From Methanosarcinales archaeon (GTDB taxonomy: Archaea > Halobacteriota > Methanosarcinia > Methanosarcinales > Methanogasteraceae), in assembly GCA_021159385.1 (NCBI GenBank), contig JAGGRW010000191.1:1-42892 (forward strand): a DNA stretch of 42,892 nucleotides, given 5' to 3'. A model generated the notes under the pieces. It ran no database searches. It saw only the letters and a program-made list of their open reading frames with translations, and had not been told where the DNA came from. Both the position numbers and the translations under genes were made by a program. Every line of letters begins with the position of its first letter. Positions within the stretch are counted from its first letter, which is position 1. This document shows positions 12,020 to 39,244 of this stretch, in pieces.

Positions 12020-12392
12020 AGATATTCACCCCGCTTTTGCGTATAATTGTTTTAAAATTTGGATTCACTCGATTCAGATCGACTACATCTATACTTTTAA
12101 GAGTGCGCAGTTCATCGATCTCGCCTCTTATCTTTGCTATCACACCAAGCGATATTTTTGATCCTGCATCGACTGCTATATCAAAATCAGAGGTCTCTGT
12201 GGCATCGCCTTTCGCTCTTGACCCGAAAAGAAAGATTCGTGCGTCGGGGAGGTACTTTGCTATTATATTTGTGGCATCTGCGAGTATCCCATCCGCGGAT
12301 AGGGGCTTTGGGTGTACTATCTGTTTCATTGCGGCATCTCCAAGTGATTTACTCTTATCTTCGCGGTCATGAGATTGTGAAGTTGCAGTCAT
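12012..12392 (-). CDS. Minimal nucleotidyltransferase (HI0073-like MNT)
   Basis: Motif IFLFGSRAKGDATETSDFDIAVD. C-terminus is VDLNRVNPNFKTIIRKSGVNIY. ATGA start/stop overlap with the upstream SNF2 gene. Confidence 0.8.
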   Translation of the reverse strand: MTATSQSHDREDKSKSLGDAAMKQIVHPKPLSADGILADATNIIAKYLPDARIFLFGSRAKGDATETSDFDIAVDAGSKISLGVIAKIRGEIDELRTLKSIDVVDLNRVNPNFKTIIRKSGVNIYD

Positions 12393-15532: not shown

Positions 15533-15534
15533 AT

Positions 15535-16305: not shown

Positions 16306-17162
16306 AGGTGAATTACCTCCTTATTTTGCTGCATTTCGATTTGACTGGCAATAACACCTCTGTGGCACAGGTTTACATCTGCTTCGAAGCATAAGAGAGC
16401 CGCCCTGTGATCTTCACCCAATCCGATGATTCGCTCTACCTCTTCAGGATGTTCTTTCAGTGTCGTGGCTTCATATCGCTTGAATAACATCTGGTAGTCC
16501 CTTCTGGTTACGAGATTTTTTCTTGATTCTCCGTCGATCCCGAGTTCAGGGATGTGGGTGTACCCGATGTCCACTTTTCCCAGATAATTCTCCAGTTTGC
16601 TTCTTGTAAAACTGAAATTCATGCTGAAAGGGTTCTTTCTGACATCGATCAGGAGGTCTATCTGGTTTTTTATCATGGTGTTCAGGAAGGAATCGATGTC
16701 TCTGCCCTCGTAGCCGATTGTGAAAAGAGCGGGGGGGCATTTATTTCTGGTGGCAGGGACAATCTCACTCTTCACCGTGTATTCAGGGTATTTACTGTAT
16801 ACATATTCTCTTATCTCACGGTCGGAATTGAACCTGCTGGTGACTCGTTTTACTTTCATAGACGCCTTGCGGTCTGCACTGGCGGCAGCTTTTCTTCCTG
16901 CTTCAGTCGGTGTCAGGTGCGTTCCGTCTTCTGCCAGGAGCCCAGCCTGTTCGAGTTTATAGAGGTCAGCGTAACATACATTGGAAAAAGGACCGTACCT
17001 ATAGGGAAAGAAGTTATAGAACTTGATGAGACGCCCCACAGTTTCCTCCTGGGCGAGCAGAAAGAGAGTTTTTACGAGCATGAATCTGGATGAGTTCTCG
17101 TTCTCTGATAGGCTTTCCACTACTTTCAGGAGGATTCGCTGTTTGTGGGTCAGGAGTTTCAT
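16302..17162 (-). CDS. Fusion of an N-terminal Panacea/DUF4065 (SocA/YwgA-like) winged-helix domain with a C-terminal DUF488 domain
   Basis: The N-terminal part, LVKTLFLLAQEE...FYNFFPYRYGPFSNVCYADLYKLEQAGLL, fits the K-L-x-Y-L...Y-GP pattern of Panacea-type domains. The C-terminal part, TIGYEGRDIDSFLNTMIKNQIDLLIDVRKNPFS...HIPELG...ALLCFEADVNLCHRGVIA, fits DUF488 (YeaO-like). Both assignments are from memory of the family motifs. Confidence 0.65.
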   Translation of the reverse strand: MKLLTHKQRILLKVVESLSENENSSRFMLVKTLFLLAQEETVGRLIKFYNFFPYRYGPFSNVCYADLYKLEQAGLLAEDGTHLTPTEAGRKAAASADRKASMKVKRVTSRFNSDREIREYVYSKYPEYTVKSEIVPATRNKCPPALFTIGYEGRDIDSFLNTMIKNQIDLLIDVRKNPFSMNFSFTRSKLENYLGKVDIGYTHIPELGIDGESRKNLVTRRDYQMLFKRYEATTLKEHPEEVERIIGLGEDHRAALLCFEADVNLCHRGVIASQIEMQQNKEVIHL

Positions 17163-17479
17163 CTCCCCACACTCCTCGCCTTATCAAGCCTGTTCTTCAC
17201 CAGTTCAGCCACCGCCCAGTAAACCTCTTTCCGCTCATCGTCCGTTAAGCCGATAGCGTCAAAGACCACATCATCCAGTGCTTTTCTGTCGGGCAGGGGT
17301 TCAGGCTCCTGCTCGCGGATGGGTTTTGCGGGGTCGAAGCCGAGTTCGGTGATGATGGATTGAATATCTCGTTTTGATATTTGACTAAATAGTTTTTCAA
17401 TATCTTTTATGTCTCTCACTTTTGGAATGAGCAAATCTTTTACTTCATATACTGGCGTTTTTAGCGCCCCCTCCCCCAA
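17159..17479 (-). CDS. Detached C-terminal tail module of an Eco57I/type IIG-like DNA methyltransferase (106 aa, TTG start in the track)
   Basis: Residues GEGALKTPVYEVKDLLIPKV...RDIQSIITELG align without gaps to the last 48 aa of the upstream 1171-aa ORF. The ORF then continues with a tail, RKALDDVVFDAIGLTDDERKEVYWAVAELVKNRL, that the large ORF lacks. It overlaps both neighbours (19 nt and 4 nt). Confidence 0.55.
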   Translation of the reverse strand: MGEGALKTPVYEVKDLLIPKVRDIKDIEKLFSQISKRDIQSIITELGFDPAKPIREQEPEPLPDRKALDDVVFDAIGLTDDERKEVYWAVAELVKNRLDKARSVGR

Positions 17480-20400
17480 AGAACCAAGCCGAGTTCAGCG
17501 AAGGTGGATTGGACCGGGCGCACATTCATCGCGACCAAAACCTCTTCACATTTATTGTTATCAACAAAAACAGGATTCAAAATAACAAAATTCAATATTT
17601 CAGGACCATACGTCGTTAATAAACCCTCTCTCAAATTTATTCGTCCATAAGTTTCGCTTATCAGTATTCCAATTGTAGAATTTAAAATTAAACCCAGAGA
17701 CCATTTTTTGTATGGATCAAATTTTCCAACAAATACAACATCCCCAATTAACACATTGGCTTCATCTGGAAGTATAGGTGTCCAATTCCTCTTGTCACGG
17801 AACCGCAAAAAAAGATAATCTTGCTTTTCTTGCTTATTTAACTCCCACCACATCCCCCTGCTTGCACAAGTGGGTCTTTCATGGAAACCTTGAGATTCCC
17901 CCCATTCGATATATTTCAACGCCTTTGTCCCCACCAGTTCCTCTTTCGACTTATGACACATAAAAACTTTATACTTCAAATCCCCTGGATTAATCACAAT
18001 CGATTTACACTCCTTTGGTGACTTTATCACCGGTTTCAAAAACTCCTCTTCGATCTGCCATTTCTTCTGCGCCTCGTCATCGAGATAGAAAAACTCATTC
18101 GCCCCTGTCTTAATTCCGAATCGAACCTCCGCAATCTCCCCCAGCCTAACAAGCTTCCCTGCCCCCTTCTCAAGAATCGTAAAGAAAATATCCGGCGCCC
18201 GCAGGTACTTCCCGCCCCACTTGTTGCCAGCATATCTCCCTTTCCTGAACCGTCCCTGCTTCTTGTCATAATCTTCAGGATACTCCCAGCCATCCTCCAG
18301 AAGGGCACCCTGCCCGACAGGAAAGACACGGTACTCATCCGTTTTCACAATCTCGTCAGCCCGCTCCATCCTCAAAAGGTTTCCAACGTTCGATACTTCC
18401 TCAAACGGTTTTTTGAACATCACAAAACGGGCTGTATGCGACAGCAGGGGCCACTCGATGCCGCCTCTGTAATCCGGATCGTCCAGCCTGCTCTGGACCG
18501 ATCCTTCTTTGACGATGCCTCCTCTGATCACTGGCGCGCCGAAGAGCGCGATTACCGTGTTCACGTCCGCATGTTCGAAGCTGCGACTGACCTGATTGTC
18601 ATAGATGGCATGAATCGGCACATACTTCAGCAGAAACTCCTGCAATCCTTTTCCATAGTCCACATCCAGCCACGAGTTTGATGTGATGAAGCAGAACGTT
18701 CCACGGGGGTTCAGGAGCCCCAGCCCGTGGAAGTAGAAGTAAACGTAATAATCGCTCTTCTTGCTGATCTTCTCGACAACCGGAAAGAGCGCGGTAACTG
18801 ACCTGACAAGTTTGTCCTTGTATCCGGTTCGATCATCCTTTGTAATCTCTACCTTCATCCTATTCGGCGGGGAGATCTTCTCCTGCCTCACATACGGGGG
18901 GTTTCCAATCACGATATCAAAACCACCCTTCTCCCCAAAAATCTCCGAAAAAGCAATCTCCCATACAAAAGGCTTCTTCTCAGGAACTTCTATCTCTACC
19001 TTGACCTTTTCAAGCGTTTCCTTCTCTTCGACAAGTTTCTTTCTCTTGTTTCTGAGTTTCTCTTTCTCTTCTCTGGAAATACCGGTTTCATTTCCTGATA
19101 AATCCAGCTGTATGTGTTTGGATCTTTTGTCTATGTCCTCAACCTTCTCGTCTATCCCCCGGATCTGCTCATCCACAATCTCGATAAAGATCCGTATCTC
19201 TTCCTTTTCCAGCGCTTCCTTGGATTTGAACCTGGCATCAGGATAGTTGTGGTAATATTTCTCTTTTTCAGCTTTTAGAGCATTCAGTTTCTTTTTGATG
19301 ATAGGCGTTGCATCAGCATCCCTCAAATGGAGATTGATACCCCCGATCTCCTGTACCAGAGAATCCCCAACCCTCAGATTCATGTTCAGATTCGGAAGAA
19401 GCGGACGAGTCTTCAGATCCTTCGGTTTAAGATCCGCCTCCACGATCAGTTGAAGCCACAGTCTCAACTCTGCAGCATGTACAGCCCACGGCATCACATC
19501 CACACCGTAAATGGACTTTCCGATGATCCCTTTTTTGATATCAAAATCTGTACGTTGAAGACCAATATTTTTGTATACTTCCCTGTACAGTTCTGTCAGG
19601 GCAATAAGATGACCTACGAGAAAAGCACCTGAACCGCAGGCGGGGTCTACAATGGAGAGATTCTCAAGTACGTCTTCAAGTGTGTGCCACATCCTCTGGT
19701 CTGTGAAGAATTTTCTGGACTTCTCTTTCTCTGCGTCAAAAACAAAATCATAGATGATCTCTCTGGGAACGTCATCGAGATGCTTTGCAAGGAATTCGGT
19801 GATGGTTCTGCGAACCATGAAATCTACTTCAACCCGTGGAGTGTAGAAGATGCCCATATCATTTCGGTCGTAAATCTCTTCGGCGACGTTTGCCAGCGAC
19901 TCATAAACATATCCTATCATCTGCGGGTCAACTGCAACTTCAACATCCAGTGGAACATCTTCTTTGATTGTAAAGTTGTATTTATTGTAAAAACCCATAA
20001 CATCGCTGATAAATTCATCTTCGAGGGAAATACCGAGTTTATCCTGATCAGTTTCCTTGAAAAGACCGCCGTTCAGGAATGGCGTTGCTCTCAAAACCTT
20101 CTTTACTTCTTCAGGCAGGTTTTCCGAGTCAAAGAATATATTGTTGAACGATTCAAAGAAAAGCACACCGAGCCAGTCTTTGTAAAAACTGTCTTTCTCT
20201 GTTTGACCATCTCGCACCCCTTTTTTATACAAACCCCAGAACCAATCCATAAATTTCGGATCGTTGTTCAGCCATCTTTTTTTGGAGATGAAATATATGA
20301 ACATTGTCCGGTTGAGGAACTGGAGGGTGAATTCATGGGCGTCTTTTGTCGAGATACTGCCATCAACGAGATGGTTTCTGATTCGGAAGAATCGTTTCTT

Positions 20401-20976
20401 GTAATCCTCAAAGAATTCGTCTGTTACCCTTGAAACACTAAAAGCCTTTTTCCAGCCCAGCCATGCGTCCCTCCAGTTATTCCAGTCTTTATTGAATCTA
20501 AGTTTTGCAACCGTATCTATATCGGTGTAGTACAGTTCCTGTTTATTTAAGAGAAGTTTTGACAATTTTAGCTTATGCTTTCCGATTTTCACCTTTTCAA
20601 ATTCCGGGAATACGAATAACAGTTCGCTGTAGTCTACAGTAAAAATGATCAATAGCCTGAGGTATCGCTCTGCAAACACCTTTGAGATATATCTTACAAA
20701 GGAAGGACTCATAGATTCGGTCTCTACAAGAAATACAGGAAGTTTATCATCCAGACTCAATATCGTGTAAATATCTTTAATTTTGGCTTTTTCGTCTTTG
20801 GCAAAATCGAAACCCTCGATATCTCGTTTAAAAGACGGGTCGAGGATAGAACTTTGAGGGTAATCCAGGTCTCTGAATAGGTTAAATAGATCGTCAGGAG
20901 ATGTGATCCTCTCGATTTTGTCTCTTATCTGGTATCGGAAGTCCGTATCGAGAGTTTTCTTCGGGTGTTTCTCCAT
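17461..20976 (-). CDS. Large N6-adenine DNA methyltransferase (Eco57I/type IIG/PglX-like architecture) with a C-terminal specificity-like region
   Basis: 1171 aa. SAM motif I IVDPACGSGAFLVG lies upstream of motif IV VIGNPPYVRQE. Family-typical helix FLNRTMFIYFISKKRWL. A coiled, K/E-rich insert separates the motifs. I could not identify a clear PD-(D/E)xK nuclease motif. Confidence 0.85.
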   Translation of the reverse strand: MEKHPKKTLDTDFRYQIRDKIERITSPDDLFNLFRDLDYPQSSILDPSFKRDIEGFDFAKDEKAKIKDIYTILSLDDKLPVFLVETESMSPSFVRYISKVFAERYLRLLIIFTVDYSELLFVFPEFEKVKIGKHKLKLSKLLLNKQELYYTDIDTVAKLRFNKDWNNWRDAWLGWKKAFSVSRVTDEFFEDYKKRFFRIRNHLVDGSISTKDAHEFTLQFLNRTMFIYFISKKRWLNNDPKFMDWFWGLYKKGVRDGQTEKDSFYKDWLGVLFFESFNNIFFDSENLPEEVKKVLRATPFLNGGLFKETDQDKLGISLEDEFISDVMGFYNKYNFTIKEDVPLDVEVAVDPQMIGYVYESLANVAEEIYDRNDMGIFYTPRVEVDFMVRRTITEFLAKHLDDVPREIIYDFVFDAEKEKSRKFFTDQRMWHTLEDVLENLSIVDPACGSGAFLVGHLIALTELYREVYKNIGLQRTDFDIKKGIIGKSIYGVDVMPWAVHAAELRLWLQLIVEADLKPKDLKTRPLLPNLNMNLRVGDSLVQEIGGINLHLRDADATPIIKKKLNALKAEKEKYYHNYPDARFKSKEALEKEEIRIFIEIVDEQIRGIDEKVEDIDKRSKHIQLDLSGNETGISREEKEKLRNKRKKLVEEKETLEKVKVEIEVPEKKPFVWEIAFSEIFGEKGGFDIVIGNPPYVRQEKISPPNRMKVEITKDDRTGYKDKLVRSVTALFPVVEKISKKSDYYVYFYFHGLGLLNPRGTFCFITSNSWLDVDYGKGLQEFLLKYVPIHAIYDNQVSRSFEHADVNTVIALFGAPVIRGGIVKEGSVQSRLDDPDYRGGIEWPLLSHTARFVMFKKPFEEVSNVGNLLRMERADEIVKTDEYRVFPVGQGALLEDGWEYPEDYDKKQGRFRKGRYAGNKWGGKYLRAPDIFFTILEKGAGKLVRLGEIAEVRFGIKTGANEFFYLDDEAQKKWQIEEEFLKPVIKSPKECKSIVINPGDLKYKVFMCHKSKEELVGTKALKYIEWGESQGFHERPTCASRGMWWELNKQEKQDYLFLRFRDKRNWTPILPDEANVLIGDVVFVGKFDPYKKWSLGLILNSTIGILISETYGRINLREGLLTTYGPEILNFVILNPVFVDNNKCEEVLVAMNVRPVQSTFAELGLVLWGRGR

Positions 20977-28477: not shown

Positions 28478-29113
28478 ATGGAAGACGATTTGATCGGAAA
28501 GTTGAGGAAGATACGAGGATTCAGGGTCATCGAGAGCGACGAGCAGAGTATACTCGTAGATGTCCGGGACTTCGGAATGGATTCGCGGGAGCTGATCCGC
28601 CGCCTCAGAGAAGACGGAATCGTTGTGCATGAGTGCGACGGTGGCAGTGGCAGTGACCGTGGCGGCGATTGCATCAGGATCGATTCCAAATCTGTTAACC
28701 GGGAGCTGATCGATGTTCTCAGCAGCGCGATATCCGACTGGGGGCAGGACCTTGCCCGAAGGAACATCGAGGCTGTGATGAAGGATGGGGTCTGCGTGGG
28801 GAGACGGGATTGTGAATATTATCCGTGCCATTTTGAGGGGCAGGACTGTACGTTCTGTTTCTGCCCGTTCTATCCGTGCGGCGATACGCGAACCGGCGGC
28901 AGGTACGTTGAAAGCTCGACCGGCAAGACGGTCTGGAGTTGCGTCGGATGCACGATCATCCACGAGCACGAGGTTGCGTGTGAGGTGCTCGACGGGCTGA
29001 TGGCGCTTGAGCCCGGAGAGGATGTTTTGTCGGTGTTTCGGGATGTGATCGTTCCGCGTCTGCGCGATCGCGATGCCGGCACTGACGCAGGTACCGACGC
29101 CGACGCCGGGTGA
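28478..29113 (+). CDS. Cysteine-rich small domain protein with an N-terminal segment resembling only the C-terminal lobe of a CobD/HisC-type aminotransferase
   Basis: The N-terminal part, [31 protein letters not shown]...CIRID, resembles an aminotransferase C-terminal domain. The C-terminal part is Cys-dense: [25 protein letters not shown]...[11 protein letters not shown]. Its 3' end forms the left copy of the island direct repeat. Confidence 0.6.
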
Positions 29114-29154
29114 TGCGAACCGCGCAACAGGGGACTCGCGCCGGTTCGTGATCG
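28886..29154. repeat. Left copy of a ~270-bp direct repeat (att-like), covering the last 228 nt of the Cys-rich-domain gene plus 41 nt downstream
   Basis: Aligns with 34921-35191. The 122-nt block 28955-29076 is identical to 34991-35112. The flanking parts carry scattered substitutions and a 1-nt indel. Confidence 0.9.
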
Positions 29155-29204
29155 TTGCAGGTAGGGGGAGGGTTTTGGCATCAATCAAAGACCGATGGAA
29201 AGCG

Positions 29205-29212
29205 TTATGATT
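29205..29212 (+). promoter_or_regulatory. TATA-like box (ttatgatt) of cassette 1
   Basis: Lies 46 nt upstream of ATG 29251. The segment 29196-29253 is clearly homologous to 34065-34122 (same box, same 46-nt spacing). Confidence 0.45.
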
Positions 29213-29250
29213 CATCCTGTACGAACAATGGAAATGAAGAGGCGAGTATT

Positions 29251-29502
29251 ATGACGAAACTAACGTTAAATATCCCTCCCGGGCTTGAAACCCGCATGGG
29301 ACTTCTGATTGAGGGGGGATTATACTACACGAAGGATGAACTCATTGCAGATGCGGTTCGGAGGTTGCTTGCAGTTGAACTTGAAACACTTGTTCAGCAC
29401 AAATATTACTGGAACAAGTTAACAGCAGAGCGTGATGTTGAGGTAACAGAGGACGAGTTGGACCGATTGATCCACGAAATCCGCGCTGAGATGATCGATT
29501 GA
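29251..29502 (+). CDS. vapB: RHH/CopG-like antitoxin (VapB-like)
   Basis: ORF 29155..29502; the likely start is ATG 29251 (MTKLTLNIPPGLETRMGLLIEGGLYYTKDELIADAVRRLL = beta strand + helices). 4-nt overlap with the PIN gene. Confidence 0.7.
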   Translation: MTKLTLNIPPGLETRMGLLIEGGLYYTKDELIADAVRRLLAVELETLVQHKYYWNKLTAERDVEVTEDELDRLIHEIRAEMID

Positions 29503-29945
29503 AACGGGTGTATCTGGACACCAATGTGCTTGTTATGGGCATTCTGAAGCATGAATCAAATTCAAGACGAGTGCTCGAATTGACAAACCGTGGAGAGATC
29601 CACGCCATTATATGTGATTACAGCATCGAGGAGCTTAAGAGAGTTCTCCGACGGCTGCTTCCACGTAAAGAAGCCAATTATAGGTTATATCTGTTCATAA
29701 AGTACGCAGCATCAAATCCGTTCATAAAAATTGTGAAATACCAATACTACGAGCACAGAGAAGACCATTTCAAAGAATATATTGTCAAAAAAGATTTGCC
29801 GCATCTGATTGTTGCGATTGAAACGAAAACAGATGCAATTATTGTGAAGGACAGGCATTTCACCGGTCAAAAGTTGATCCGCGTCATGACTCCACGCGAG
29901 TTCCTGCGAGAGCTGGGTAAAGATATGTTTGAAGGCGATTTGTGA
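29499..29945 (+). CDS. vapC: PIN-domain toxin (VapC-like)
   Basis: TTG start overlapping the antitoxin stop (TTGA). N-terminal KRVYLDTNVLV acidic motif. C-terminal TDAIIVKDRHF. Confidence 0.75.
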   Translation: MKRVYLDTNVLVMGILKHESNSRRVLELTNRGEIHAIICDYSIEELKRVLRRLLPRKEANYRLYLFIKYAASNPFIKIVKYQYYEHREDHFKEYIVKKDLPHLIVAIETKTDAIIVKDRHFTGQKLIRVMTPREFLRELGKDMFEGDL

Positions 29946-30286: not shown

Positions 30287-30348
30287 CCGAAGTGTACCCC
30301 GCTTCGCGTGCACGCAACAGGCGAGGGTGGTTCGCGATTTCTGCAGAG

Positions 30349-30403
30349 CCCGCCGCCGGTTCGGTGCTGATGCGGACGTGCGCGATGGCGGGCGGCGGGC
30401 GGG
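30349..30403. repeat. GC-rich junction repeat A
   Basis: Core ccgccgccggttcggtgctgatgcgga (30350-30376) and tgcgcgatggcgggcgg (30379-30395) are identical to 33984-34010 and 34013-34029. The outer 8-bp arms cccgccgc / gcggcggg are complementary. Confidence 0.85.
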
Positions 30404-31183: not shown

Positions 31184-31230
31184 CGTGCTGAACTCTCACA
31201 ATACTCCCGGATTGTTTGGTGCAAACGCAA

Positions 31231-31282
31231 GCGATGGCGGGCGGGCGGCAGATGCGCATGTGGGGCGGCGGGTGGTGGGAAC
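31231..31282. repeat. GC-rich junction repeat B (rearranged or duplicated version of the right half of repeats A and C)
   Basis: gcgatggcgggcgggcggcag followed by atgcgcatgtggggcggcgggtggtgggaac. Compare gcgcgatggcgggcggcgggcgggaac in A. Confidence 0.6.
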
Positions 31283-31367: not shown

Positions 31368-31544
31368 ATGGATGGACTTGTTGCGGATGCTGTTCGGAGA
31401 TTGCCAGAGAGGCTCGAACTTGCAACACTTGTTCAGCCGCACAAATACTACTGGAACAGGTTAACAGCAGAGCGCGATATTGAGGTAACAGAGGTCGAAT
31501 TGGACCGATTAATTCATGAAATCCGCGCAGAGATGGTGAAGTGA
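31368..31544 (+). pseudogene. N-terminally truncated paralog (58 codons, still open) of the 29251 RHH antitoxin
   Basis: 31373-31547 aligns at nucleotide level with 29335-29508. It encodes MDGLVADAVRRLPERLELATLVQPHKYYWNRLTAERDIEVTEVELDRLIHEIRAEMVK, versus ...ELIADAVRRLLAVELETLVQHKYYWNKLTAERDVEVTEDELDRLIHEIRAEMID. It lacks the DNA-binding beta strand. Confidence 0.7.
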
Positions 31545-31638
31545 AACAAACGCGATCGATCGTTCAACCAGATGGATATGTATACGAAGTAGGTTCGGAT
31601 ATACTGCGTTAGGCGAAATGCGTAGGAGGTATTGAGAT

Positions 31639-32547
31639 ATGTCAATTATAATTGATGGAGAACGAGGAAAAAAGGTGGCGGAACTCCTCTATACTTCATT
31701 CTCTACTAACGGTATTCATGGAAGAACAGATATGCCTGAAGACATAACGCCCAATGGTGTAGTAAGAGGCTCTCTTGACCATATACTCTTTATAACCCTC
31801 ACAGTTTCTATTGACTACCAACGAGATGCCCCATCGTTATGGGCGAGTTCAAGAAAAACATTTGACGATCCAGAAACGAGATACTTATTTGATCCAAAAC
31901 TACTCTATGAAACTCCTTCCGACAAGATTATTGAAAATATGCAAAAGTATGGGCTATCTAAGAAACCTCAAAAAGATGCTTATATTTGGCGAACAGTTGG
32001 TGTTACTTTTTATAAAAAATGGGAAAGCAATCCCTGTAACTTCCTTAAAAACTGCAACTGGGATTCATCACTCATTTTAAAACGCCTAAAAAACGATACT
32101 CACCTATATAACGGAAGATCATTACCGGATTATCCGTACCTCCGTGGTCCTAAGATTGGGCCATTATGGTTGAGGATGCTTAGAGACAATGTAGGCATAA
32201 CACAATTGAGAAATTTGGAGAAGGTTCCTATCCCTGTAGATATACATGTAGCAAGAGCTACATTAGCTACTGGGATTGTTAGAGGGCAGTTCAGAGGTAA
32301 ATTAGATGAAGTGTTTGAATATATACGAAAAGCTTGGTTTGAGAGTGTAAAAGGACTTAGCATTAAGAACAGAGAGGTGATAGCGTTGGACGTGGACGAG
32401 CCTCTTTGGCATCTTTCTAAGTACGGTTGTGCAATGCGAGATAAGACGACTGGCAACTGTCCACTTTATCATAGATGTGAAGCAAAAGAGTTTTGCGTTC
32501 AAGGAATGGTTAAAATAGAAGGTAATATTGTGGAGTTGGACTCATGA
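31639..32547 (+). CDS. HhH-GPD-superfamily DNA glycosylase-like protein with a C-terminal four-Cys cluster
   Basis: 302 aa. Helix-hairpin-helix plus catalytic Asp region YLRGPKIGPLWLRMLRDNVG...IPVDIHVARATLATGIV (compare EndoIII LPGVGRKTA...VDTHIFRV). C-terminal C-x9-C-x5-C-x5-C (CAMRDKTTGNCPLYHRCEAKEFC). AT-rich. Confidence 0.6.
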   Translation: MSIIIDGERGKKVAELLYTSFSTNGIHGRTDMPEDITPNGVVRGSLDHILFITLTVSIDYQRDAPSLWASSRKTFDDPETRYLFDPKLLYETPSDKIIENMQKYGLSKKPQKDAYIWRTVGVTFYKKWESNPCNFLKNCNWDSSLILKRLKNDTHLYNGRSLPDYPYLRGPKIGPLWLRMLRDNVGITQLRNLEKVPIPVDIHVARATLATGIVRGQFRGKLDEVFEYIRKAWFESVKGLSIKNREVIALDVDEPLWHLSKYGCAMRDKTTGNCPLYHRCEAKEFCVQGMVKIEGNIVELDS

Positions 32548-33005
32548 AAACATTATGTATAGTTCCTTGTGGGAATAGGAAGATATGGAATAAAAAACCA
32601 AATGCAGGACCTACCCAAGCAAGAGATGTATATACCGGACTGTTCGCTAAAAAGTGTAGAGAATATGCAGAGAAATTTTACCGAACCTCTTGGTGTATTC
32701 TATCTATTCTATCTGCAAAATATGGATTTCTATTTCCAGACGAAATTGTCCAAGGTCCTTATAATGTAAGTTTTAATGACAAAAGCACAAATCCAATCTC
32801 TCTAAGTGAACTCTCTAATCAAATAATAGAGAAAAAATTGAATAAGTTTGATAGAATTGTGGTTTTGGGTGGAAGAAATTATGTAAATATGATAAAGGCA
32901 GTGTTTCACCAAAAGGAAATTCATACGCCATTAACTGATTGCCAAGGAATTGGATATATGATGGGAAAGCTTAACGACTCTATTCAAAGAGGAGTTCCGC
33001 TATGA
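32544..33005 (+). CDS. DUF6884-like (YaaA-related, SAKYG motif) protein
   Basis: 153 aa. ATGA overlap with the upstream gene. IVPCGNRK...ARDVYTGLFAKKCREYAEKF...WCILSILSAKYGFLFPDEIVQGPYNVSF matches my memory of the DUF6884 pattern and needs HMM confirmation. Confidence 0.5.
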   Translation: MKTLCIVPCGNRKIWNKKPNAGPTQARDVYTGLFAKKCREYAEKFYRTSWCILSILSAKYGFLFPDEIVQGPYNVSFNDKSTNPISLSELSNQIIEKKLNKFDRIVVLGGRNYVNMIKAVFHQKEIHTPLTDCQGIGYMMGKLNDSIQRGVPL

Positions 33006-33026
33006 CCTACGCACTATCACCTAACA

Positions 33027-33094
33027 GAGCGTATCTGGCTACGGGGCTTCGCACCTCCGCCCAAATTCCCCTTCGGGAAACTTCAGATACGCTC
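33027..33094. repeat. Perfect 11-bp inverted repeat (gagcgtatctg / cagatacgctc) enclosing a 46-nt GC-rich segment related to junction repeat C; candidate structured element
   Basis: Arms at 33027-33037 and 33084-33094. The enclosed cttcgcacctccgcccaaattcccc resembles cttcgtgaccctccgcaaacccc at 33963-33985. Confidence 0.6.
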
Positions 33095-33230
33095 GGAACG
33101 TTGTGCGAAAGCACACCATAACGAGGTGTTGAAATGAAGATAAATTGGATAATTGAGGAAAAAGATATTTGCCATATAAAAAAAATTCGTTGATTCTCAA
33201 AGTGGCAAATCGTTTGTAAAAAAAAGGATT

Positions 33231-33905
33231 GTGAGAAATGTAGAAGGGGCCATTCCTGACTTTAATAGAGATATATTCTGGAAGGAAATGATTTCTTGCC
33301 TTTTAACAACTCAACAGCGTTCAGGTCCTGAAAGTTCCGTAACTCGGTTTATTTGCACTGATCCGTTTCCTTTAAATTTAAATGAATGTAAGAACAAAAG
33401 CAATCTTAAAGAATTTGTAGAAGATACAATTACCAATTTTGGAGGCCTGTGGCGTGCAAAGACGATAGGAGACGCGGTTCTTTGCAATTTTAAATGGCTT
33501 AAATACGGTGGCTGGCAGGAAATTGAAGCGGCTGCAGAAAGGCTTGTAGAACCAAGGAGGCGAAGTCCCCGATTCGATGACAAATTCATTGAAAGAGAAG
33601 CCGCAAAGGTTGCAATTGATAAACTCAAAGGGTTTGGCCCAAAACAGTCGAGAAATTTATGGCAATCGTTGGGGCTTACAAGATTTGAGATACCAGTCGA
33701 TAGCAGAATTACAAAATGGTTTAATAAAAATGGTTTCCCTGTTAGGCTTTCAGCAGGTGCGTTGTCTGATGAAAACTATTACAACTTTGTAATGGATGGT
33801 ATACAACAAGCTTGTAAGGCAAGCGAGGTTTATCCTTGCGTTTTGGATGCGGCAATCTTTGCAAGTTTTGATCAGGAATGGCCTGAAGATAAATTGATTT
33901 GGTGA
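33231..33905 (+). CDS. Ogg2/AGOG-like HhH-GPD DNA glycosylase-like protein (the N-terminus probably lies upstream, across an A8 frameshift)
   Basis: FWKEMISCLLTTQQRS and the HhH region LKGFGPKQSRNLWQSLGLTRFEIPVDSRITKWF (Lys in the hairpin, Asp in VDSR) fit archaeal Ogg-type glycosylases. The track start is GTG 33231. See the finding on ATG 33134. Confidence 0.6.
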   Translation: MRNVEGAIPDFNRDIFWKEMISCLLTTQQRSGPESSVTRFICTDPFPLNLNECKNKSNLKEFVEDTITNFGGLWRAKTIGDAVLCNFKWLKYGGWQEIEAAAERLVEPRRRSPRFDDKFIEREAAKVAIDKLKGFGPKQSRNLWQSLGLTRFEIPVDSRITKWFNKNGFPVRLSAGALSDENYYNFVMDGIQQACKASEVYPCVLDAAIFASFDQEWPEDKLIW

Positions 33906-33981
33906 AATGAGTGGTGTGCCATCATATAACACAACACATACGCTGCGGGCTTACGCCTTGCGCTTCGTGACCCTCCGCAAA

Positions 33982-34040
33982 CCCCGCCGCCGGTTCGGTG
34001 CTGATGCGGATATGCGCGATGGCGGGCGGGGCGGCAGGGG
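33982..34040. repeat. GC-rich junction repeat C
   Basis: ccccgccgccggttcggtgctgatgcggatatgcgcgatggcgggcggggcggcagggg. It shares 27-nt and 17-nt identical blocks with repeat A. Its 3' flank through 34119 is homologous to 29131-29250. Confidence 0.85.
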
Positions 34041-34073
34041 TTGGAAATTTTCGATGAGAAAAGTCCGAAAGCG

Positions 34074-34080
34074 TTATAAT
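34074..34080 (+). promoter_or_regulatory. TATA-like box (ttataat) of the last cassette
   Basis: Lies 46 nt upstream of ATG 34120. aaagcgttataatctatcc compares with aaagcgttatgattcatcc at 29198-29216. SD-like aaggagtg lies at 34107-34114. Confidence 0.45.
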
Positions 34081-34119
34081 CTATCCTATACGAAGAATGG
34101 ACAGAAAGGAGTGAATAGA

Positions 34120-34350
34120 ATGACCCCGAGAAAGAGTGAAATACCGATCGAAATGAAAGAAATGGATGAATTAGAACAAATGATCGAAGAAAAACTGGAA
34201 AAAGTTGATCTTATGCAAGCAGTCCATAGAGCAAGATTGAGAAGTGCGAGATTGCTGAATGAACAGGGAATATCCACGCTTGCTTTGATCATCTCAAAAA
34301 CTTTGATAGATGTAATCGAACATCCGGAAAAGATGGAGATGCTGGCTTAA
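34120..34350 (+). CDS. Small helical antitoxin-like protein (76 aa) upstream of a decayed PIN gene
   Basis: ORF 33907..34350; the likely start is ATG 34120. The stop abuts the ATG of the PIN remnant (taaATG at 34348-34353). No specific family recognised. Confidence 0.5.
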   Translation: MTPRKSEIPIEMKEMDELEQMIEEKLEKVDLMQAVHRARLRSARLLNEQGISTLALIISKTLIDVIEHPEKMEMLA

Positions 34351-34795
34351 ATGAAGGTATACATGGATACCTCTGTGCTGGCGGTTCCCACACACTTCAA
34401 GAATATAGAATTGGATCAATATAAATCTGTTTCCAAATTGGTTGGGGTGTGCAAGAGTAAAGGTAATAGAGATCGTTATATCCTTCTATGCTTTGCACGA
34501 ACTGTTTTTACTATCCTTTGATTACTTCGATGAAAAAACAGCCAGAACAATCGGCAAGACGTCCGTAACAGAGATTTTGAACATCTAGGGTGTGGAATTG
34601 ATAGAACTGCTTTCACGGAAGAACAGACTGTTGTATCAGGAGCAATTCAATATGAACGACCGAACCGATATTCCACATGCTATCTCTGCATTCGTGGAGG
34701 GGTGTGATAGTATAATCACATACGACACTCATTTTGATCAGATCTCCCATCTGATAAACGTATCAACGCCAGAAAGTTTTATAGATTCGATTTGA
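34351..34795 (+). pseudogene. PIN-domain (VapC-like) toxin pseudogene with at least two frame disruptions
   Basis: Frame 1 gives MKVYMDTSVLAV...CKSKG, with a stop at about 34519. A shifted frame gives VIEIVISFYALHELFLLSFDYFDEKTARTIGK...ILNI*. A third frame (34592..34795) gives the PIN C-terminus DIPHAISAFVEGCDSIITYDTHFDQI. Confidence 0.75.
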
Positions 34796-34920
34796 TAGAA
34801 CTCGTAGGATGCGAAGTATCTGAGGCAGATGGGGGACCGTGTTGGGATAACGCCCGTAGATGCAATTGCGCTTGCAAATTATCGGTAACAGCCGCCCATT
34901 CGGCACAGACGCGGGCGATT

Positions 34921-35191
34921 ACGCGAACCGGCGGCAGGTACGTCGAAAGTTCGACCGGTAGGACGGTCTGGAGTTGTGTCGGGTGCGACAATCATCCACG
35001 AGCACGAGGTTGCGTGTGAGGTGCTCGACGGGCTGATGGCGCTTGAGCCCGGAGAGGATGTTTTGTCGGTGTTTCGGGATGTGATCGTTCCGCGTCTGCG
35101 CGATCGCGATGCTGGTACTGATGCCGGTACCGACGCCGACGCCGGGTGATGCAAACCGCGCAACTTTGGGACTCGCGTCGTTTCGCGATCG
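34921..35191. repeat. Right copy of the ~270-bp direct repeat; a non-functional duplicate of the 3' end of the 28478..29113 gene
   Basis: See the left copy. It has a 1-nt insertion relative to copy 1 (tgcacgatcatcc vs tgcgacaatcatcc) and no 5' gene body upstream. Confidence 0.9.
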
Positions 35192-35240
35192 CTGATCCGG
35201 CATCGGCGTGGGCTGGCTGTCGATTCGGTTGAGAGCAGGT

Positions 35241-35248: not shown

Positions 35249-35314
35249 GTTTGTGAGTTTTATTGTGTTATGATGCTGCTTTGTTTGCGCATCACGACAA
35301 GGAGGAACAATAAT

Positions 35315-38300
35315 ATGAATGGATGCATAAAATACGTGAGTGTACTGATTATGTTGATGGCGTTTATAACAGTCAGCGCAGCCGACGAGCCACCCGAACT
35401 TATATCATGTGACATATATCCAGCCCCGCCAGTTGAGCAGGGTACCCACATATCGATTGACTGTCTGTTCTCTGAGATCGTAGGCTATGAAATCCGCATC
35501 GAGAATGCTACAGGTCTGGTCAAAAAGATCGATAACGGCAATGCAATGGATCCAGAGAAGGCGTGGTGGAACACAACCACTGGAACCTCCGCTGGGACCT
35601 ATACCGTAAACGTGACCATGGACAATTCCACATCGGGATCGTCCTCGTATAACGATACACATACCATCGAGGTCACTGCCGCAGCCGCTGAGCCACCTAA
35701 ACTTATATCATGTGACATATATCCAGCCCCGCCAGTTGAGCAGGGTACCCACATATCGATTGACTGTCTGTTCTCTGAGATCGTAGGCTATGAAATCCGC
35801 ATCGAGAATGCTACAGGTCTGGTCAAAAAGATCGATAACGGCAATGCAATGGATCCAGAGAAGGCGTGGTGGAACACAACCACTGGAACCTCCGCTGGGA
35901 CCTATACCGTAAACGTGACCATGGACAATTCCACATCGGGATCGTCCTCGTATAACGATACACATACCATCGAGGTCACTGCCGCAGCCGCTGAGCCACC
36001 TAAACTTATATCATGTGACATATATCCAGCCCCGCCAGTTGAGCAGGGTACCCACATATCGATTGACTGTCTGTTCTCTGAGATCGTAGGCTATGAAATC
36101 CGCATCGAGAATGCTACAGGTCTGGTCAAAAAGATCGATAACGGCAATGCAATGGATCCAGAGAAGGCGTGGTGGAACACAACCACGGGAACCTCCGCTG
36201 GGACCTATAACGTAAACGTGACCATGGACAATTCCACATCGGGATTGTCATCGCATAACAGTACGAACACCATCGAGGTCACTACTGCCACAGGCGACAC
36301 CACAGCACCAACCGTAACAGGTCACACACCGACCGATGGCAAAACAGACGTTCCGATATCGACAGCGATAAGCGTAACGTTCAGCGAGGCGATGAATAAG
36401 ACATCTGTGAAAAATGCGTTCACTATCGATCCTGATGTTGGTGGATCGTTTGACTGGAATGATGATGATACAATAACCTTCACTCCAGATGATGACCTTG
36501 CGTATGATGCAACATACAACGTGACTATTGAAACGGAAGCAAAAGATCTGGCAGGCAACAATCTGGATAATCCTATCAGCTGGGGCTTTACCACAGAATC
36601 ATTAGGACACTCCACCGGCTTCCGAATCTGGGATGCAAACAGGAAACCCCCCATGGATCTCAACTACACATGGGATGCCCGCAGTTTCACCGGATTCTAT
36701 TATGATCTCGATGATGATACCAGCACAGAAACACTGACCATTCATCTGGACAGTGACGATGATCGAACCATCGAAGAGGGCCATCTCGAGTATGTCACCG
36801 AAGCAGCCGATATCGACTTTGAATGCAATGAGTGGGGCAAATACAAAGTGATCGGTTTCATGGCAGAGAAGTATTTCGCAGGATATGGCGACAAAACCGA
36901 TGATAAGATAACATCCGATACCATAAGCCTCGTCTCAAAGGATATGCTGAGCAAGGTTCTGATCGATGAAGACGAGAAACATACGATCTCAACGGGTGCA
37001 TCGCTCGAACTGAAGGAAGACTACGAGTTAAAGATCATACAACTCGACATCGATGGAGGTCAAGCGCAGATCGAACTGATGAAGAACGGAAAGAGCGTTG
37101 ACACTGATATCGTGAGATCGCCAGACACGTATGTGTACACGAAAGATCTCGGAAAACTGGATGATGTCCCACTTGTTGCGGTCAACATCAACAGCGTCTT
37201 TGCTGGCACAGAGTCGGATATGCTTGTAATCGAAGGAATCTTCCAGATATCAGATGATACAATCTCTGTAGATACCGGTGACGACTACGGCGATATGGAG
37301 ATCAAGTCTTCTTCAGGTTATAAGATCAAGATGGAAAACACCGATGACATCGATCTCGAAGAGGATGAAATCGTTGATATCATGGGGAACATCAAGTTCC
37401 TCGTTGCTGACAATAGCACTCTTCGATTTGCACTCTACGAAGATATAACCTCAGAGCCGGGCACGCATGACATTCGTGGAACGGTCTACAATACCACAGA
37501 GAAGCCAACATGGGATCACATGAACTTCGAAGGTTTCTACTATGACATCGATGATGACCTCGGCACCGAAGAATTGCGTGTTGAAAACATCGGCAACACT
37601 ATCGATGAAGGCAATCTCGTCTACACAACAAAACCTGAACCGGTCGGATTTGATCTCGACAGATGGGGATCTTACGAGGTTATCGGTTTCATGGCAGAGA
37701 AGTACTTTGCAGGATATGGCAGTGGAACCAAGAAGGAGCTAACATCCGATACCATCAGCCTCATCGCAAAGGATATGCTGAGCAAGGTCTTGGTCGATGT
37801 CGAGGATGACCGCATGATCTCCACAGGCGCGTCGCTCCCATTGTACGAGGGTTACGAGTTAAAGATCATACAGCTCGATACCGACGGAGGTCAAGCACAG
37901 CTAGAACTGCTGAAGAACGGAAAGAGTGTTGACACTGATATCGTGAAATCACCGGACACGTATGTGTACAAGAAAGATCTCGGAAAACTGGATGATGTCC
38001 CTATAATTGCGATCCGCATCGGCAACGTCTTTGCTGGCACAGAGACGGATATGGTTACAATCGAGGGCGCATTCCAGATATCAGACGACCCTATCTCTGT
38101 AGACACAGGTGACGAATACGGCGAGATGGAGATCACAACCGCCTCATCCGGTGGAATCACGATGAAGAACAAAGAGAACGATATCGATCTCGAAGGCGAC
38201 GAGACCATCATGATAACGGATACTATCGGCTTCAAGGTCTCAGACGACGAAGACCGGTACTACCTCTTTGTCAGACGGACGGTCGGCTCACTCGACTCGC

Positions 38301-39244
38301 TTGAGATCGAATTCTCTGAATCCCCTATCGTGGATGAGGAAATAACGATTACCGTAACAGCAGCATCAGATGGTGATCCGGTCGAGGGCGCGGAGGTCAC
38401 ATTCGACGGAACGAATCTCGGACTCACCGACTCGAGCGGAGAGGTCAGGCACACGCCGGATGAGGCTGGTACGTTCACAGTCATGGCAAGCAAGGGGGAC
38501 TATGATTCCGCATCCAGTGACGTTAAAATTCTGACTGAGGACGAGGCAGAGAAGGATCAACTCGAAATCGAGATGCCGGATGTTGTCGATCCCGGCGATG
38601 ACGTGATCATCAAGGTGCTGTCGGACGGCGATCCGGTCGAGGGCGCGACCGTTACGTGGGACGACGAGGAGATCGGGGAGACCGATGGGACAGGTAGCCT
38701 GACATATACCGCTGATGACGTGGGAACCTACACGGTTACAGCGACAAAAAGCGGGTATCTTGATGCAAGCGAGAAGATCACAGTCTCCCTGCCATCTGCG
38801 GAGTTTGAGCTAACTGGTTTCACTGTCGTTCCCGAAGAGGTGGCTGCCAAGAAGGAGTTCACGGTCACAGTCGATGTCACGAACACGGGCGATCTCGAGG
38901 GCACGTACCGCGCAGAACTGATGATCGATGACGGCAACGGCACCGTCGAGAGCGCAGGATTGCAGAACGTCACACTTGCGCCGGGCGAGGTTGAGACGAT
39001 CGAGTTCACGCACAAGATCGCAAGCGCAGGCGTCTACACGGTACGGATCGACACCGAATCCGAAGAGATCACGGTCACGAAATCCAGGTCAAATTCGGGT
39101 GTGATTGCTGCCATCTTCATTGTGCTGGCTGTTCTTGGTGGTATCGGCTATGTGCTGATCAGTTCTGCGCCGGAAGGCGGGTGGACTGTCGAGAAACTGA
39201 CTGACGCGATAAAAGAGCTGTTCCAGAGGAAAGGGCATCTGTGA
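35315..39244 (+). CDS. Large S-layer-like surface protein: signal peptide, 3 x 101-aa repeats, SbsA/Big_5-like Ig domain, two DUF1608 (Methanosarcinales S-layer duplication) domains, CARDB/Ig-like domains, C-terminal TM anchor
   Basis: ORF 35270..39244; the likely start is ATG 35315 (MNGCIKYVSVLIMLMAFITVSAA). Ig-like DTTAPTVTGHTPTDGKTDVPISTAISVTFSEAMN. Two copies of the pattern SFTGFYYDLDDD...VIGFMAEKYFAGY...KVLIDEDEK...IIQLDIDGGQAQIELMKNGKSVD...FQISDD. TM anchor VIAAIFIVLAVLGGIGYVLI. Many NxS/T sequons. Confidence 0.85.
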   Translation: MNGCIKYVSVLIMLMAFITVSAADEPPELISCDIYPAPPVEQGTHISIDCLFSEIVGYEIRIENATGLVKKIDNGNAMDPEKAWWNTTTGTSAGTYTVNVTMDNSTSGSSSYNDTHTIEVTAAAAEPPKLISCDIYPAPPVEQGTHISIDCLFSEIVGYEIRIENATGLVKKIDNGNAMDPEKAWWNTTTGTSAGTYTVNVTMDNSTSGSSSYNDTHTIEVTAAAAEPPKLISCDIYPAPPVEQGTHISIDCLFSEIVGYEIRIENATGLVKKIDNGNAMDPEKAWWNTTTGTSAGTYNVNVTMDNSTSGLSSHNSTNTIEVTTATGDTTAPTVTGHTPTDGKTDVPISTAISVTFSEAMNKTSVKNAFTIDPDVGGSFDWNDDDTITFTPDDDLAYDATYNVTIETEAKDLAGNNLDNPISWGFTTESLGHSTGFRIWDANRKPPMDLNYTWDARSFTGFYYDLDDDTSTETLTIHLDSDDDRTIEEGHLEYVTEAADIDFECNEWGKYKVIGFMAEKYFAGYGDKTDDKITSDTISLVSKDMLSKVLIDEDEKHTISTGASLELKEDYELKIIQLDIDGGQAQIELMKNGKSVDTDIVRSPDTYVYTKDLGKLDDVPLVAVNINSVFAGTESDMLVIEGIFQISDDTISVDTGDDYGDMEIKSSSGYKIKMENTDDIDLEEDEIVDIMGNIKFLVADNSTLRFALYEDITSEPGTHDIRGTVYNTTEKPTWDHMNFEGFYYDIDDDLGTEELRVENIGNTIDEGNLVYTTKPEPVGFDLDRWGSYEVIGFMAEKYFAGYGSGTKKELTSDTISLIAKDMLSKVLVDVEDDRMISTGASLPLYEGYELKIIQLDTDGGQAQLELLKNGKSVDTDIVKSPDTYVYKKDLGKLDDVPIIAIRIGNVFAGTETDMVTIEGAFQISDDPISVDTGDEYGEMEITTASSGGITMKNKENDIDLEGDETIMITDTIGFKVSDDEDRYYLFVRRTVGSLDSLEIEFSESPIVDEEITITVTAASDGDPVEGAEVTFDGTNLGLTDSSGEVRHTPDEAGTFTVMASKGDYDSASSDVKILTEDEAEKDQLEIEMPDVVDPGDDVIIKVLSDGDPVEGATVTWDDEEIGETDGTGSLTYTADDVGTYTVTATKSGYLDASEKITVSLPSAEFELTGFTVVPEEVAAKKEFTVTVDVTNTGDLEGTYRAELMIDDGNGTVESAGLQNVTLAPGEVETIEFTHKIASAGVYTVRIDTESEEITVTKSRSNSGVIAAIFIVLAVLGGIGYVLISSAPEGGWTVEKLTDAIKELFQRKGHL
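35387..36295 (+). repeat. Three tandem 303-bp coding repeats (units starting at 35387, 35690, 35993)
   Basis: Units 1 and 2 are essentially identical; the duplicated antisense ORFs 35405..35662 and 35708..35965 have identical translations. Unit 3 diverges only near its 3' end. Confidence 0.95.

Follow-up and report, generated by a model that had tools for sequence, protein, structure and literature searches.

In the 42,892-nt contig JAGGRW010000191.1 of a Methanosarcinales archaeon (Methanogasteraceae; assembly GCA_021159385.1), the whole of which we refer to as the window, two genes that overlap by four nucleotides (ATGA) are followed directly by a site with the architecture of an integron attC. 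The first gene (31639-32547, + strand) encodes a 302-aa protein resembling glycosylases of the helix-hairpin-helix (HhH) GPD superfamily and the second (32544-33005, + strand) a 153-aa protein of the DpdC- and YaaA-related family DUF6884. Upstream of both lies a 58-aa open reading frame (ORF; 31368-31544, + strand), a 5'-truncated copy of the ribbon-helix-helix (RHH) antitoxin gene at 29251-29502. A preliminary description of this DNA had reported the three ORFs, the overlap and the AT-richness, all of which are present in the sequence; the cassette region has a GC fraction of 0.37-0.39, compared with 0.52-0.54 in the flanking host DNA. It did not mention the site just referred to, a conserved hairpin of about 90 nt (33018-33107), or a gene further downstream for an Ogg2-like glycosylase (33134-33905). 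The window also codes for a Methanosarcinales-type S-layer protein (PF07752) and the small primase subunit PriS, and identical copies of the 302-aa glycosylase occur in assemblies from SAMN18353073 and SRR14000037/38.

By fold and family profile, the 302-aa protein belongs to the HhH-GPD superfamily of enzymes; its core resembles AGOG and Qng1, and its four-Cys cluster is unusually spaced. Its AlphaFold2 (AF2) model (pLDDT 97) has the two-domain helical HhH fold of that superfamily, with the conserved catalytic Asp (D201) after the hairpin, and a Foldseek search with the model agrees with the family profile in placing it there, as the preliminary description had proposed. The top structural match in the PDB is Qng1/DUF2419, a queuosine-5'-monophosphate N-glycosidase (7u07 and related entries; E=2e-7, probability 1.0), at a TM score of 0.55-0.59 and 12-15% identity over about 305 aligned columns, followed by EndoIII, Mig.Mth (1kea), MutY and MagIII, also at probability 1.0. 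Searching the PDB with the single sequence of either protein returned nothing useful, and only the family profile reached AGOG, matching the catalytic-Asp region (IPIPVD...W) of the Pyrobaculum enzyme 1xqo at E=2.4e-6. The active-site stretch GPKIGPLWLRML...PVDIHVARA, which had been singled out earlier as an HhH/Asp signature, is indeed there and aligns to AGOG. D201 and H203 within it are among the residues conserved in at least 90% of 57 diverse homologs, which comprise T53, W68, W117, W177, D201, H203, W233, C264, C274, C280 and C286. K172, which lies in a G-P-K hairpin 29 residues ahead of D201, is invariant in close homologs, but some distant ones have R, T or M at this position, so that lyase activity is uncertain.

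The cluster C264-x9-C274-x5-C280-x5-C286 had been described correctly, and all four of its Cys residues belong to the conserved set. The Cys-rich tail aligns loosely, through the family profile, with the iron-sulfur (FeS) region of ROS1/EndoIII, and UniRef names members of the family "Iron-sulfur cluster loop"; the four residues are predicted to bind a [4Fe-4S] centre, although the loop of EndoIII and MutY is spaced differently (Cys-x6-Cys-x2-Cys-x5-Cys). With the Pfam model for AGOG (PF09171) the protein scores 15.6 bits, below the gathering cut-off of 26.1, in a match limited to residues 194-261. With the NCBIfam model it scores 17.6 bits against a cut-off of 383, and it matches no PADLOC model. 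It belongs to no curated family. Its own family is unnamed and small, with 740 clusters at 90% identity and 594 representatives at 50% identity among 1.84 billion proteins.

The 153-aa partner, previously noted for an ILSAKYGF motif, belongs to DUF6884 (Pfam PF21818), scoring 54.9 bits against a cut-off of 30. It contains both of the motifs by which that family is defined (PMC11701544), CxxxK as C9GNRK13 and LSAxxG as L56SAKYG61, and C9, K13, S57, A58 and G61 are invariant in 34 DUF6884 homologs. A tandem duplication of nine nucleotides (TATTCTATC twice, 32696-32713) adds Ile-Leu-Ser just before LSAKYG; it is absent from two related loci (L026 and L030) and from every 150-aa homolog, and present in three independent assemblies of the window population. 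The protein matches the PADLOC candidate-defence model PDC-M57A (E=2e-14) and PHROG 5935. No PADLOC DpdC model is matched by it at E<=0.01; such models are matched by homologs in which the glycosylase and DUF6884 are fused. The AF2 model (pLDDT 89.7) has AF0587 (2q07) as its best Foldseek match, a weak one (E=1.6e-3). A YaaA-like fold was considered and dropped, YaaA not being among the top 50 Foldseek matches, and the relation to YaaA rests on a weak Pfam match and on published work (PMC11701544). Of other DUF6884 members, Bacillus subtilis YfjM came out of a pull-down on abasic and ribonucleotide lesions (PMC11701544), and DpdC ("DUF6884, e.g. dpdC", PMC12235509) turns preQ0-DNA into ADG-DNA, i.e. 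7-cyano-7-deazaguanine into the 7-amido form (PMC10164549).

These two genes very likely form a functionally coupled pair. Among the 65 metagenomic loci with at least 460 nt of sequence downstream of the glycosylase gene, 45 have a full-length DUF6884 gene at the overlap, 10 a remnant of its 5' end and 10 none, and in eight of the ten longer homologs examined the two domains are fused, DUF6884 being N-terminal in some and C-terminal in others. The pair with the identical 4-nt overlap was found in TA06, WOR-3, Omnitrophota, Argoarchaeum, Petrotoga isolates and the complete genome of Staphylothermus hellenicus. The linkage that the preliminary description had left to a survey of other genomes is therefore borne out. 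No third gene is conserved with the pair: when 429 neighbouring ORFs were clustered all against all, no family occurred in more than five loci.

Some loci depart from this arrangement. In L014 (7656-9787) the glycosylase has an N-terminal extension of about 115 aa, and DUF6884 is reduced to roughly its first nine codons, after which the frame reads on as an unrelated 294-aa ORF. DUF6884 is shortened to 42 or 69 codons in L037-L040 and L050-L052, with an attC directly after it in L037-L040. In L017 (1484-5386), from an uncultured archaeon, a truncated DUF6884-like ORF (hhalign E=8e-8) is followed by a Tag-like glycosylase with a C-terminal Cys cluster (PADLOC "OGG" model, E=4e-20). The 302-aa glycosylase comes next, and then apparent type I restriction-modification genes, so that this locus holds a cluster of two HhH glycosylases and a DUF6884 protein.

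We conclude with good confidence that window positions 31609-33100 are a 1.49-kb integron-type cassette made of two translationally coupled genes and their own attC. At the 5' end (31608-31638, + strand) an R'-type core, GTTAGGC, is followed by a conserved leader in which the ribosome-binding site AGGAGG lies 8 nt ahead of the glycosylase ATG. Conservation upstream of the glycosylase gene across loci starts exactly at GTTAGGCGAAATGCGTAGGAG (31608), the crossover being expected between G31608 and T31609 (G|TTAGGC), and what lies 5' of GTTAGGCGAAATGCGTAGGAG varies by locus and is usually another element with attC architecture. At the other end, an element of about 90-100 nt that comes straight after the DUF6884 stop codon is common to many loci. 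It shares a layout of GCCTAAC, a 12-nt arm, two variable hairpins around CGCCCAAATT, a complementary arm, a spacer of 4-5 nt and GTTAGRC. The window copy (33018-33107, + strand) consists of R'' (ACCTAAC, 33019-33025), an L''/L' stem (approximately 33027-33038 with 33084-33094), two variable inner hairpins, an unpaired 5-nt spacer and R' (GTTGTGC, 33100-33106). This R' is one base off the consensus GTTRRRY; other copies have GTTAGGC, GTTAGAC or GTTAGAT.

The helices of this element are supported by covariation. Over 26 elements and 17 pairs, 87% of the cells in the R and L helices are paired, compared with 22-40% when the 3' partner is slid; compensatory changes occur in 10 pairs, and the covariation score is 0.45, whereas the slid controls reach no more than 0.10. 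A covariance model trained on the related elements themselves, and hence a narrow attC model, scores the window site at 76.3 bits (E=8.5e-18) and, applied to 100 related loci, detects 68 sites, of which 65 lie on the gene strand. Scans of the window with Rfam and for tRNA genes gave no matches, so the hairpin is not a catalogued RNA. Three points weigh against a cassette here, namely that the narrow model recognizes an attC in no more than about a third of the loci, that the window, with a single intact attC and remnants, falls short of the formal two-attC definition of an array, and that no tyrosine recombinase or integrase was found among the scanned subset of window ORFs.

Related loci do contain arrays by that definition, which asks for at least two attCs less than 4 kb apart and in one orientation (PMC9668308). 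There are seven attCs in L010, five in L055, four each in L044 and L108, and three each in L054, L008 and L031, spaced 0.7-2.8 kb apart. A recombinase of the XerA/integron-integrase type adjoins the pair in L010 and L004, scoring 244 bits on NF040815 (cut-off 220) and 218 bits on TIGR02249 (cut-off 265). We rejected a general link with an integrase, since that of L010 has just one weak relative among the neighbours.

The cassette also does not follow its hosts. At the nucleotide level, the whole cassette is 89.7% identical between the window archaeon and a bacterial metagenome-assembled genome. For Argoarchaeum compared with WOR-3, TA06 or Petrotoga the figure is 85%, and for the window archaeon compared with Staphylothermus just 68%. 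The whole cassette, attC included, thus departs from taxonomy and has moved between Bacteria and Archaea. What is new here is that the pair travels as an integron cassette of two genes, and that this cassette has passed between the two domains.

The preliminary description had offered another frame for the pair, in which it occupies the position of a toxin behind a truncated antitoxin. The homology on which this was built is real: 31416-31547 is 87-95% identical to 29377-29505 in a repeat comparison within the window, and the 58-codon ORF corresponds to residues ~26-83 of an RHH protein 83 aa long, so that the beta-strand has been lost with the first ~25 codons. The similarity ends at the stop codon, where the PIN gene starts in the complete RHH-PIN copy (TTGAAACGG versus GTGAAACAA); that copy, cassette 1, runs on into PIN, and its PIN and RHH families were confirmed by profile search. 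The pair begins 95 nt past the stop codon of the remnant, i.e. where the paralogous cassette has its PIN toxin, and the surrounding ~6 kb is a toxin-antitoxin island, all of which one might cite for a toxin, or a toxin replacement, in an RHH-PIN type cassette. Among the loci searched, however, the remnant gave a tblastn match only in L026, and in L112, from the population of the window, a 58-aa gene occupies its position. The remnant is thus found beside the pair only in the window lineage (window, L026 and L112) and is no conserved partner. It lacks the DNA-binding strand, and more than 100 other loci have the pair as a cassette on its own, without a conserved antitoxin candidate next to it. 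Outside the window lineage the pair is preceded by another cassette's attC. Since no antitoxin is conserved beside the pair, we discard a toxin role, which we consider extremely improbable. The placement next to RHH has no functional meaning and is a by-product of cassette insertion or recombination, the remnant probably serving merely as upstream sequence or promoter. Of the wider proposal, the part that saw mobile base excision rather than housekeeping repair was largely right, and it is the toxin slot that has to be replaced by an integron-type cassette.

The company that the pair keeps in arrays and flanks is informative about its function. The L010 array, from WOR-3 bacterium UBA6260, includes cassettes for two type II restriction-modification systems, both complete with their methylases (BsaWI-type and MvaI/BcnI-type), as well as the PADLOC candidates PDC-M57B, preceded by a DUF6884-like ORF, and PDC-S61. 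PDC-M57B and this ORF lie at 12326-14054, two cassettes 3' of the pair, where a 138-aa DUF6884-like ORF (FSDLYG, hhalign E=1e-4) is followed by PDC-M57B (E=3e-54), so that DUF6884 proteins have at least two different partners in one array. There is a PDC-S19 cassette in L044 and a PD-Lambda-3_B in L108 (Thermodesulfovibrio), and type ISP, type I, GmrSD and DUF499 genes lie beside the pair in Petrotoga, TA06, Omnitrophota and Staphylothermus. The mobile and defence-related setting suspected in the preliminary description is therefore present.

DNA methyltransferases (N6_N4 and N6) are the commonest neighbour family (9 of 141), and one lies directly 3' of the pair in TA06 and in WOR-3. One may therefore ask whether the pair serves restriction-modification systems in the manner of Vsr or Mig.Mth, mending the mismatches that arise from deaminated methylated bases and for that reason travelling with DNA methyltransferases. 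Mig.Mth, a plasmid-borne FeS HhH glycosylase beside a restriction-modification system, is also among the structural matches. Nevertheless, more than 90% of the scanned neighbours are not methyltransferases, and the core of the 302-aa protein is AGOG/Qng1-like, not Mig-like. The neighbouring methylases are of the N4-C/N6-A type, and the deamination products of bases methylated in this way are dealt with by general enzymes. Each restriction-modification system in the arrays is moreover a separate cassette with its own attC, and adjacency thus reflects the array rather than an operon. An obligate restriction-modification partnership is unlikely, and we regard the companion role as a whole as improbable.

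The reading that we favour, and to which we give about an even chance, is that the cassette is a modification-dependent antiviral defence module acting by base excision. Four observations speak for it: the restriction-modification and candidate-defence genes found in its arrays and flanks, the precedent of Dag glycosylases on Vibrio integrons (10.1101/2025.10.29.685425), two independent, if remote, links to 7-deazaguanine (the resemblance to Qng1 and membership in the family of DpdC), and the fact that a PADLOC candidate system, PDC-M57, already includes a DUF6884 protein. By analogy with these systems the pair may well be antiviral. The two proteins would then share the handling of a non-canonical purine in DNA: DUF6884 would locate the base, flip it out and perhaps convert it chemically, and the glycosylase would remove it, so that abasic sites or nicks stall replication of the invading DNA. 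QueF, in which a Cys attacks a nitrile, offers an analogy for the chemistry: the invariant Cys/Lys of DUF6884 may attack the nitrile of dPreQ0 covalently or hydrate it before the base is handed over. That 7-deazaguanine is the target base is a tentative proposal, on which we would not insist. Tentative, too, is the full picture of a two-protein immune module in which a DpdC-like DUF6884 protein recognizes 7-deazaguanine (e.g. dPreQ0) and an iron-sulfur AGOG/Qng1-like glycosylase excises it, carried by an integron cassette of both Bacteria and Archaea.

A number of observations speak against an antiviral module, or against 7-deazaguanine as its target. Many neighbours of the pair are housekeeping genes, and the 25 commonest neighbour families include no genes of the preQ0 pathway and no dpd genes. 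The 7-deazaguanine link is remote, the TM score to Qng1 being only 0.55-0.59 and the 153-aa protein missing the DpdC models. Protein identity across phyla is 65-98%, unusually conservative for a defence gene, and many carriers are thermophiles or anaerobes, which also fits the repair of damage. The recovery of YfjM on abasic and ribonucleotide lesions suggests repair as well. The lysine K172 is not universal (Arg, Thr or Met in some distant members), and the window copy of DUF6884 has a three-residue insertion right beside its motif.

Several of these points lead to the strongest of the alternatives, a mobile base-excision repair system whose glycosylase removes a damaged purine from host DNA (e.g. 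8-oxoG, hypoxanthine or an alkylated base) and whose DUF6884 protein handles the abasic site, to the benefit of cells in hot, anoxic, hydrocarbon-rich habitats. AGOG, the nearest relative by sequence whose function is known, is an 8-oxoguanine glycosylase/lyase; abasic and ribonucleotide lesions are bound by YfjM, whose family, DUF6884, is related to the oxidative-stress protein YaaA. Petrotoga, Staphylothermus, Methanoliparum thermophilum and Hakubella thermalkaliphila are among the carriers, the sequences are very highly conserved, and adaptive genes of many kinds ride on integron cassettes. On the other hand, a close relative of the glycosylase is present in only 15 of 185,579 species genomes, which excludes a core repair role (the preliminary description had likewise surmised something other than housekeeping repair). 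This sporadic occurrence, the setting among restriction-modification and candidate-defence cassettes and the standard repair enzymes that hosts already possess speak against repair. In addition, the sole DUF6884 enzyme with a defined reaction works on a modified base and not on a lesion. Repair and defence enzymes also behave as separate classes, none of six housekeeping glycosylases having protected E. coli (10.1101/2025.10.29.685425), although overexpressed Fpg alone gave ~100-fold protection against one Vibrio phage (Getz et al., 10.1101/2025.10.29.685425). It follows from this separation that the fold alone cannot decide between repair and defence. We consider mobile repair rather unlikely, though it deserves serious attention.

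Could the pair instead act on the DNA of its carrier, remodelling 7-deazaguanine or another base there, or help a virus to evade the defences of its host? DpdC is, after all, part of a modification operon. A few phages encode DUF6884 proteins (PHROG 5935; Listeria, Caulobacter and Fusobacterium phages), and a distant glycosylase is encoded by Halogranum tailed virus 1, the sole viral relative of the 302-aa protein (KC292026.1, 103109-103654; gene 212, annotated "endonuclease III"; 27% identity, Foldseek E=1e-8, target-normalised TM 0.79). Haloarchaeal megaplasmids, too, carry distant copies of the 302-aa protein. For self-modification one would look for the TGT/DndB-type genes dpdA and dpdB or for preQ0 synthesis genes, none of which is among the 25 commonest neighbour families, and a hydrolytic glycosylase acting on its own modified DNA would be self-damaging. 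As for counter-defence, which the preliminary description had left as an option, searches of IMG/VR (2.9 million viral contigs), of 50,697 phage records and of plasmid records turned up no close relative of the glycosylase, the phage and plasmid records giving distant matches only. We rejected a viral origin on these grounds, and a viral counter-defence role is unlikely. Taken together, the roles in self-modification, editing and counter-defence appear quite improbable.

Beyond the pair, the next cassette of the window carries the Ogg2-like HhH glycosylase gene (33134-33905, + strand), which is frameshifted. An extra A in the A8 run at 33178-33185 causes a +1 shift that leaves the first 19 codons (from the ATG at 33134) in another frame. 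The same shift is seen again in one assembly of the window population, and the gene is intact at that point in the related contig L026. Like the nine-nucleotide duplication in the DUF6884 gene, the shift is a sign of wear in the window copy. Bacteria (e.g. Thermodesulfovibrio and Smithella) widely carry homologs of 249-258 aa with up to 93% identity, next to GmrSD, HicA and CRISPR genes, and in L108 (Thermodesulfovibrio) the homolog forms an attC-flanked cassette by itself, beside PD-Lambda-3_B. The Ogg-like gene accompanies the pair only in the window lineage and is not a conserved partner. L026 has the RHH remnant, the pair and the Ogg-like gene as in the window, but other preceding cassettes, indicating that the island is being reshuffled.

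Of the attC of the Ogg-like cassette just a 5' half survives, which aligns to the L108 attC; this remnant (33923-34034, + strand) runs into R3, one of three GC-rich repeats located between cassettes (R1, 30340-30400; R2, 31217-31275; R3, 33974-34034) that share GCGATGGCGGGCGG. R1 and R3 are 91% identical over 56 nt, contain the inverted repeat CCCGCCGCC/GGCGGCGGG and are preceded by xTATAAC, which resembles an attC 5' half. We rejected the three repeats as attCs of the pair-cassette family, the covariance model giving only a very weak match, at the Ogg-cassette remnant/R3 (E=9.4). They look like attC remnants joined to another repeat, either a second attC type or an element inserted into attCs.

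Direct repeats of ~270-310 nt (28885-29157 and 34920-35194; 85-97% identical across the repeat segments found) flank the entire 6-kb AT-rich island. They are copies of the 3' end of a Cys-rich "zf-like" gene (28478-29113), as though the island had inserted into, or duplicated, the end of that gene, and no integrase was found between them. The island contains a further RHH-PIN-like cassette (34121-34795), whose PIN gene is seemingly split into two ORFs (34351-34521 and 34592-34795); upstream of it, 34067-34124 is 76% identical to 29198-29255, the region upstream of cassette 1. A separate defence island on the - strand (12389-20976) consists of an HKD(PLD)+Snf2 helicase (12389-15532), a strong match to PADLOC PDC-M19 (B, 15535-16305, E=4e-119; A, DUF488, 16302-17162, E=8e-81) and a type IIG restriction-methylase (17461-20976). 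The S-layer protein (35270-39244, 1324 aa) opens with three near-identical repeats of ~120 residues (...EPPKLISCDIYPAPPVEQGTHISIDCLFSEIVGYEIRIENATGL...).

If the defence reading is true, it gives a concrete role to the 302-aa "iron-sulfur cluster loop" proteins and to short DUF6884 proteins, and it extends the class of antiviral glycosylases from single bacterial enzymes to a two-component system that is also found in Archaea. Should the module moreover act on 7-deazaguanine, it would be the first defence system in which an enzyme family of DNA modification has been turned on modified DNA, and Archaea would have their first documented antiviral glycosylase system borne on a cassette. If the function is repair instead, the Rosetta-stone fusions would still define a new pair of base-excision glycosylase and partner. 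Independently of function, the cassette provides a well-resolved case of cross-domain transfer, a 1.5-kb unit with its recombination site that is 85-90% identical between methanogen-related archaea and WOR-3, TA06 and Petrotoga, and cultured carriers exist (Petrotoga spp. and Staphylothermus hellenicus).

Clusters of attC sites in Archaea and the capture of cassettes across domains are already known (Ghaly et al., Sci Adv 2022, PMC9668308). The cassettes described there resemble that of the pair in their RYYYAAC/GTTRRRY cores, paired L box and tandem arrays in one orientation, and the arrays resemble ours in that most are without an integrase, contain toxin-antitoxin cassettes and have been transferred between domains. 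Ours differs in carrying two genes and, in the window, in having a singleton attC with remnants. The nearest catalogued defence candidate is PDC-M57, composed of a DUF6884-like protein (M57A) and M57B, on which no paper was found in a literature search. The 153-aa partner matches M57A, and M57B is two cassettes away in the WOR-3 array; the 302-aa glycosylase, however, matches no PADLOC model, so the pairing is not the catalogued system.

Among individual proteins, AGOG (PF09171; 1xqo) is the only sequence-level relative with a known function. Its Asp region (IPIPVD...W) aligns with that of the 302-aa protein, and its spacing from Lys to Asp (~30 residues) is similarly long, but the 302-aa protein stays under the Pfam cut-off and only ~65 residues align. 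We know of no Cys cluster in AGOG and of no DUF6884 partner, and to our knowledge it is a chromosomal repair gene. Qng1 shares the HhH-type fold and cuts the glycosidic bond of a 7-deazaguanine nucleotide; it differs in acting on the free nucleotide and not on DNA, in having no known FeS cluster, in being mainly eukaryotic and in giving no sequence-level match to the 302-aa protein. DpdC is of the same DUF6884 family as the 153-aa protein and acts on a base within duplex DNA, but its models span ~310 positions, as against 153 aa in the window protein, and it works with DpdA/DpdB in a modification operon.

Brig1, the antiviral glycosylase named in the preliminary description, reportedly has a fold of the uracil-DNA-glycosylase type, unlike the HhH fold of the 302-aa protein, and the nearer precedent is therefore that of the HhH Dag enzymes. 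These glycosylases, found on Vibrio integron cassettes, destroy phage DNA modified with 7-deazaguanine (Getz et al., 10.1101/2025.10.29.685425). Going by the published description, Dags and our pair have in common the HhH glycosylase fold, a location on integron cassettes in AT-rich mobile DNA near defence genes, a catalytic Lys/Asp pair with a conserved Trp and possibly a link to 7-deazaguanine, and some Dags cluster structurally near AGOG. Dags are, in contrast, described as single-gene effectors and were found in Bacteria, and the paper mentions for them neither an iron-sulfur cluster nor an accessory gene, whereas the pair has a four-Cys cluster, occurs in both Archaea and Bacteria and is an obligate-looking two-gene unit or a fusion with DUF6884. 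On the defence reading, the pair would thus be a two-protein relative of the single-gene Dag glycosylases.

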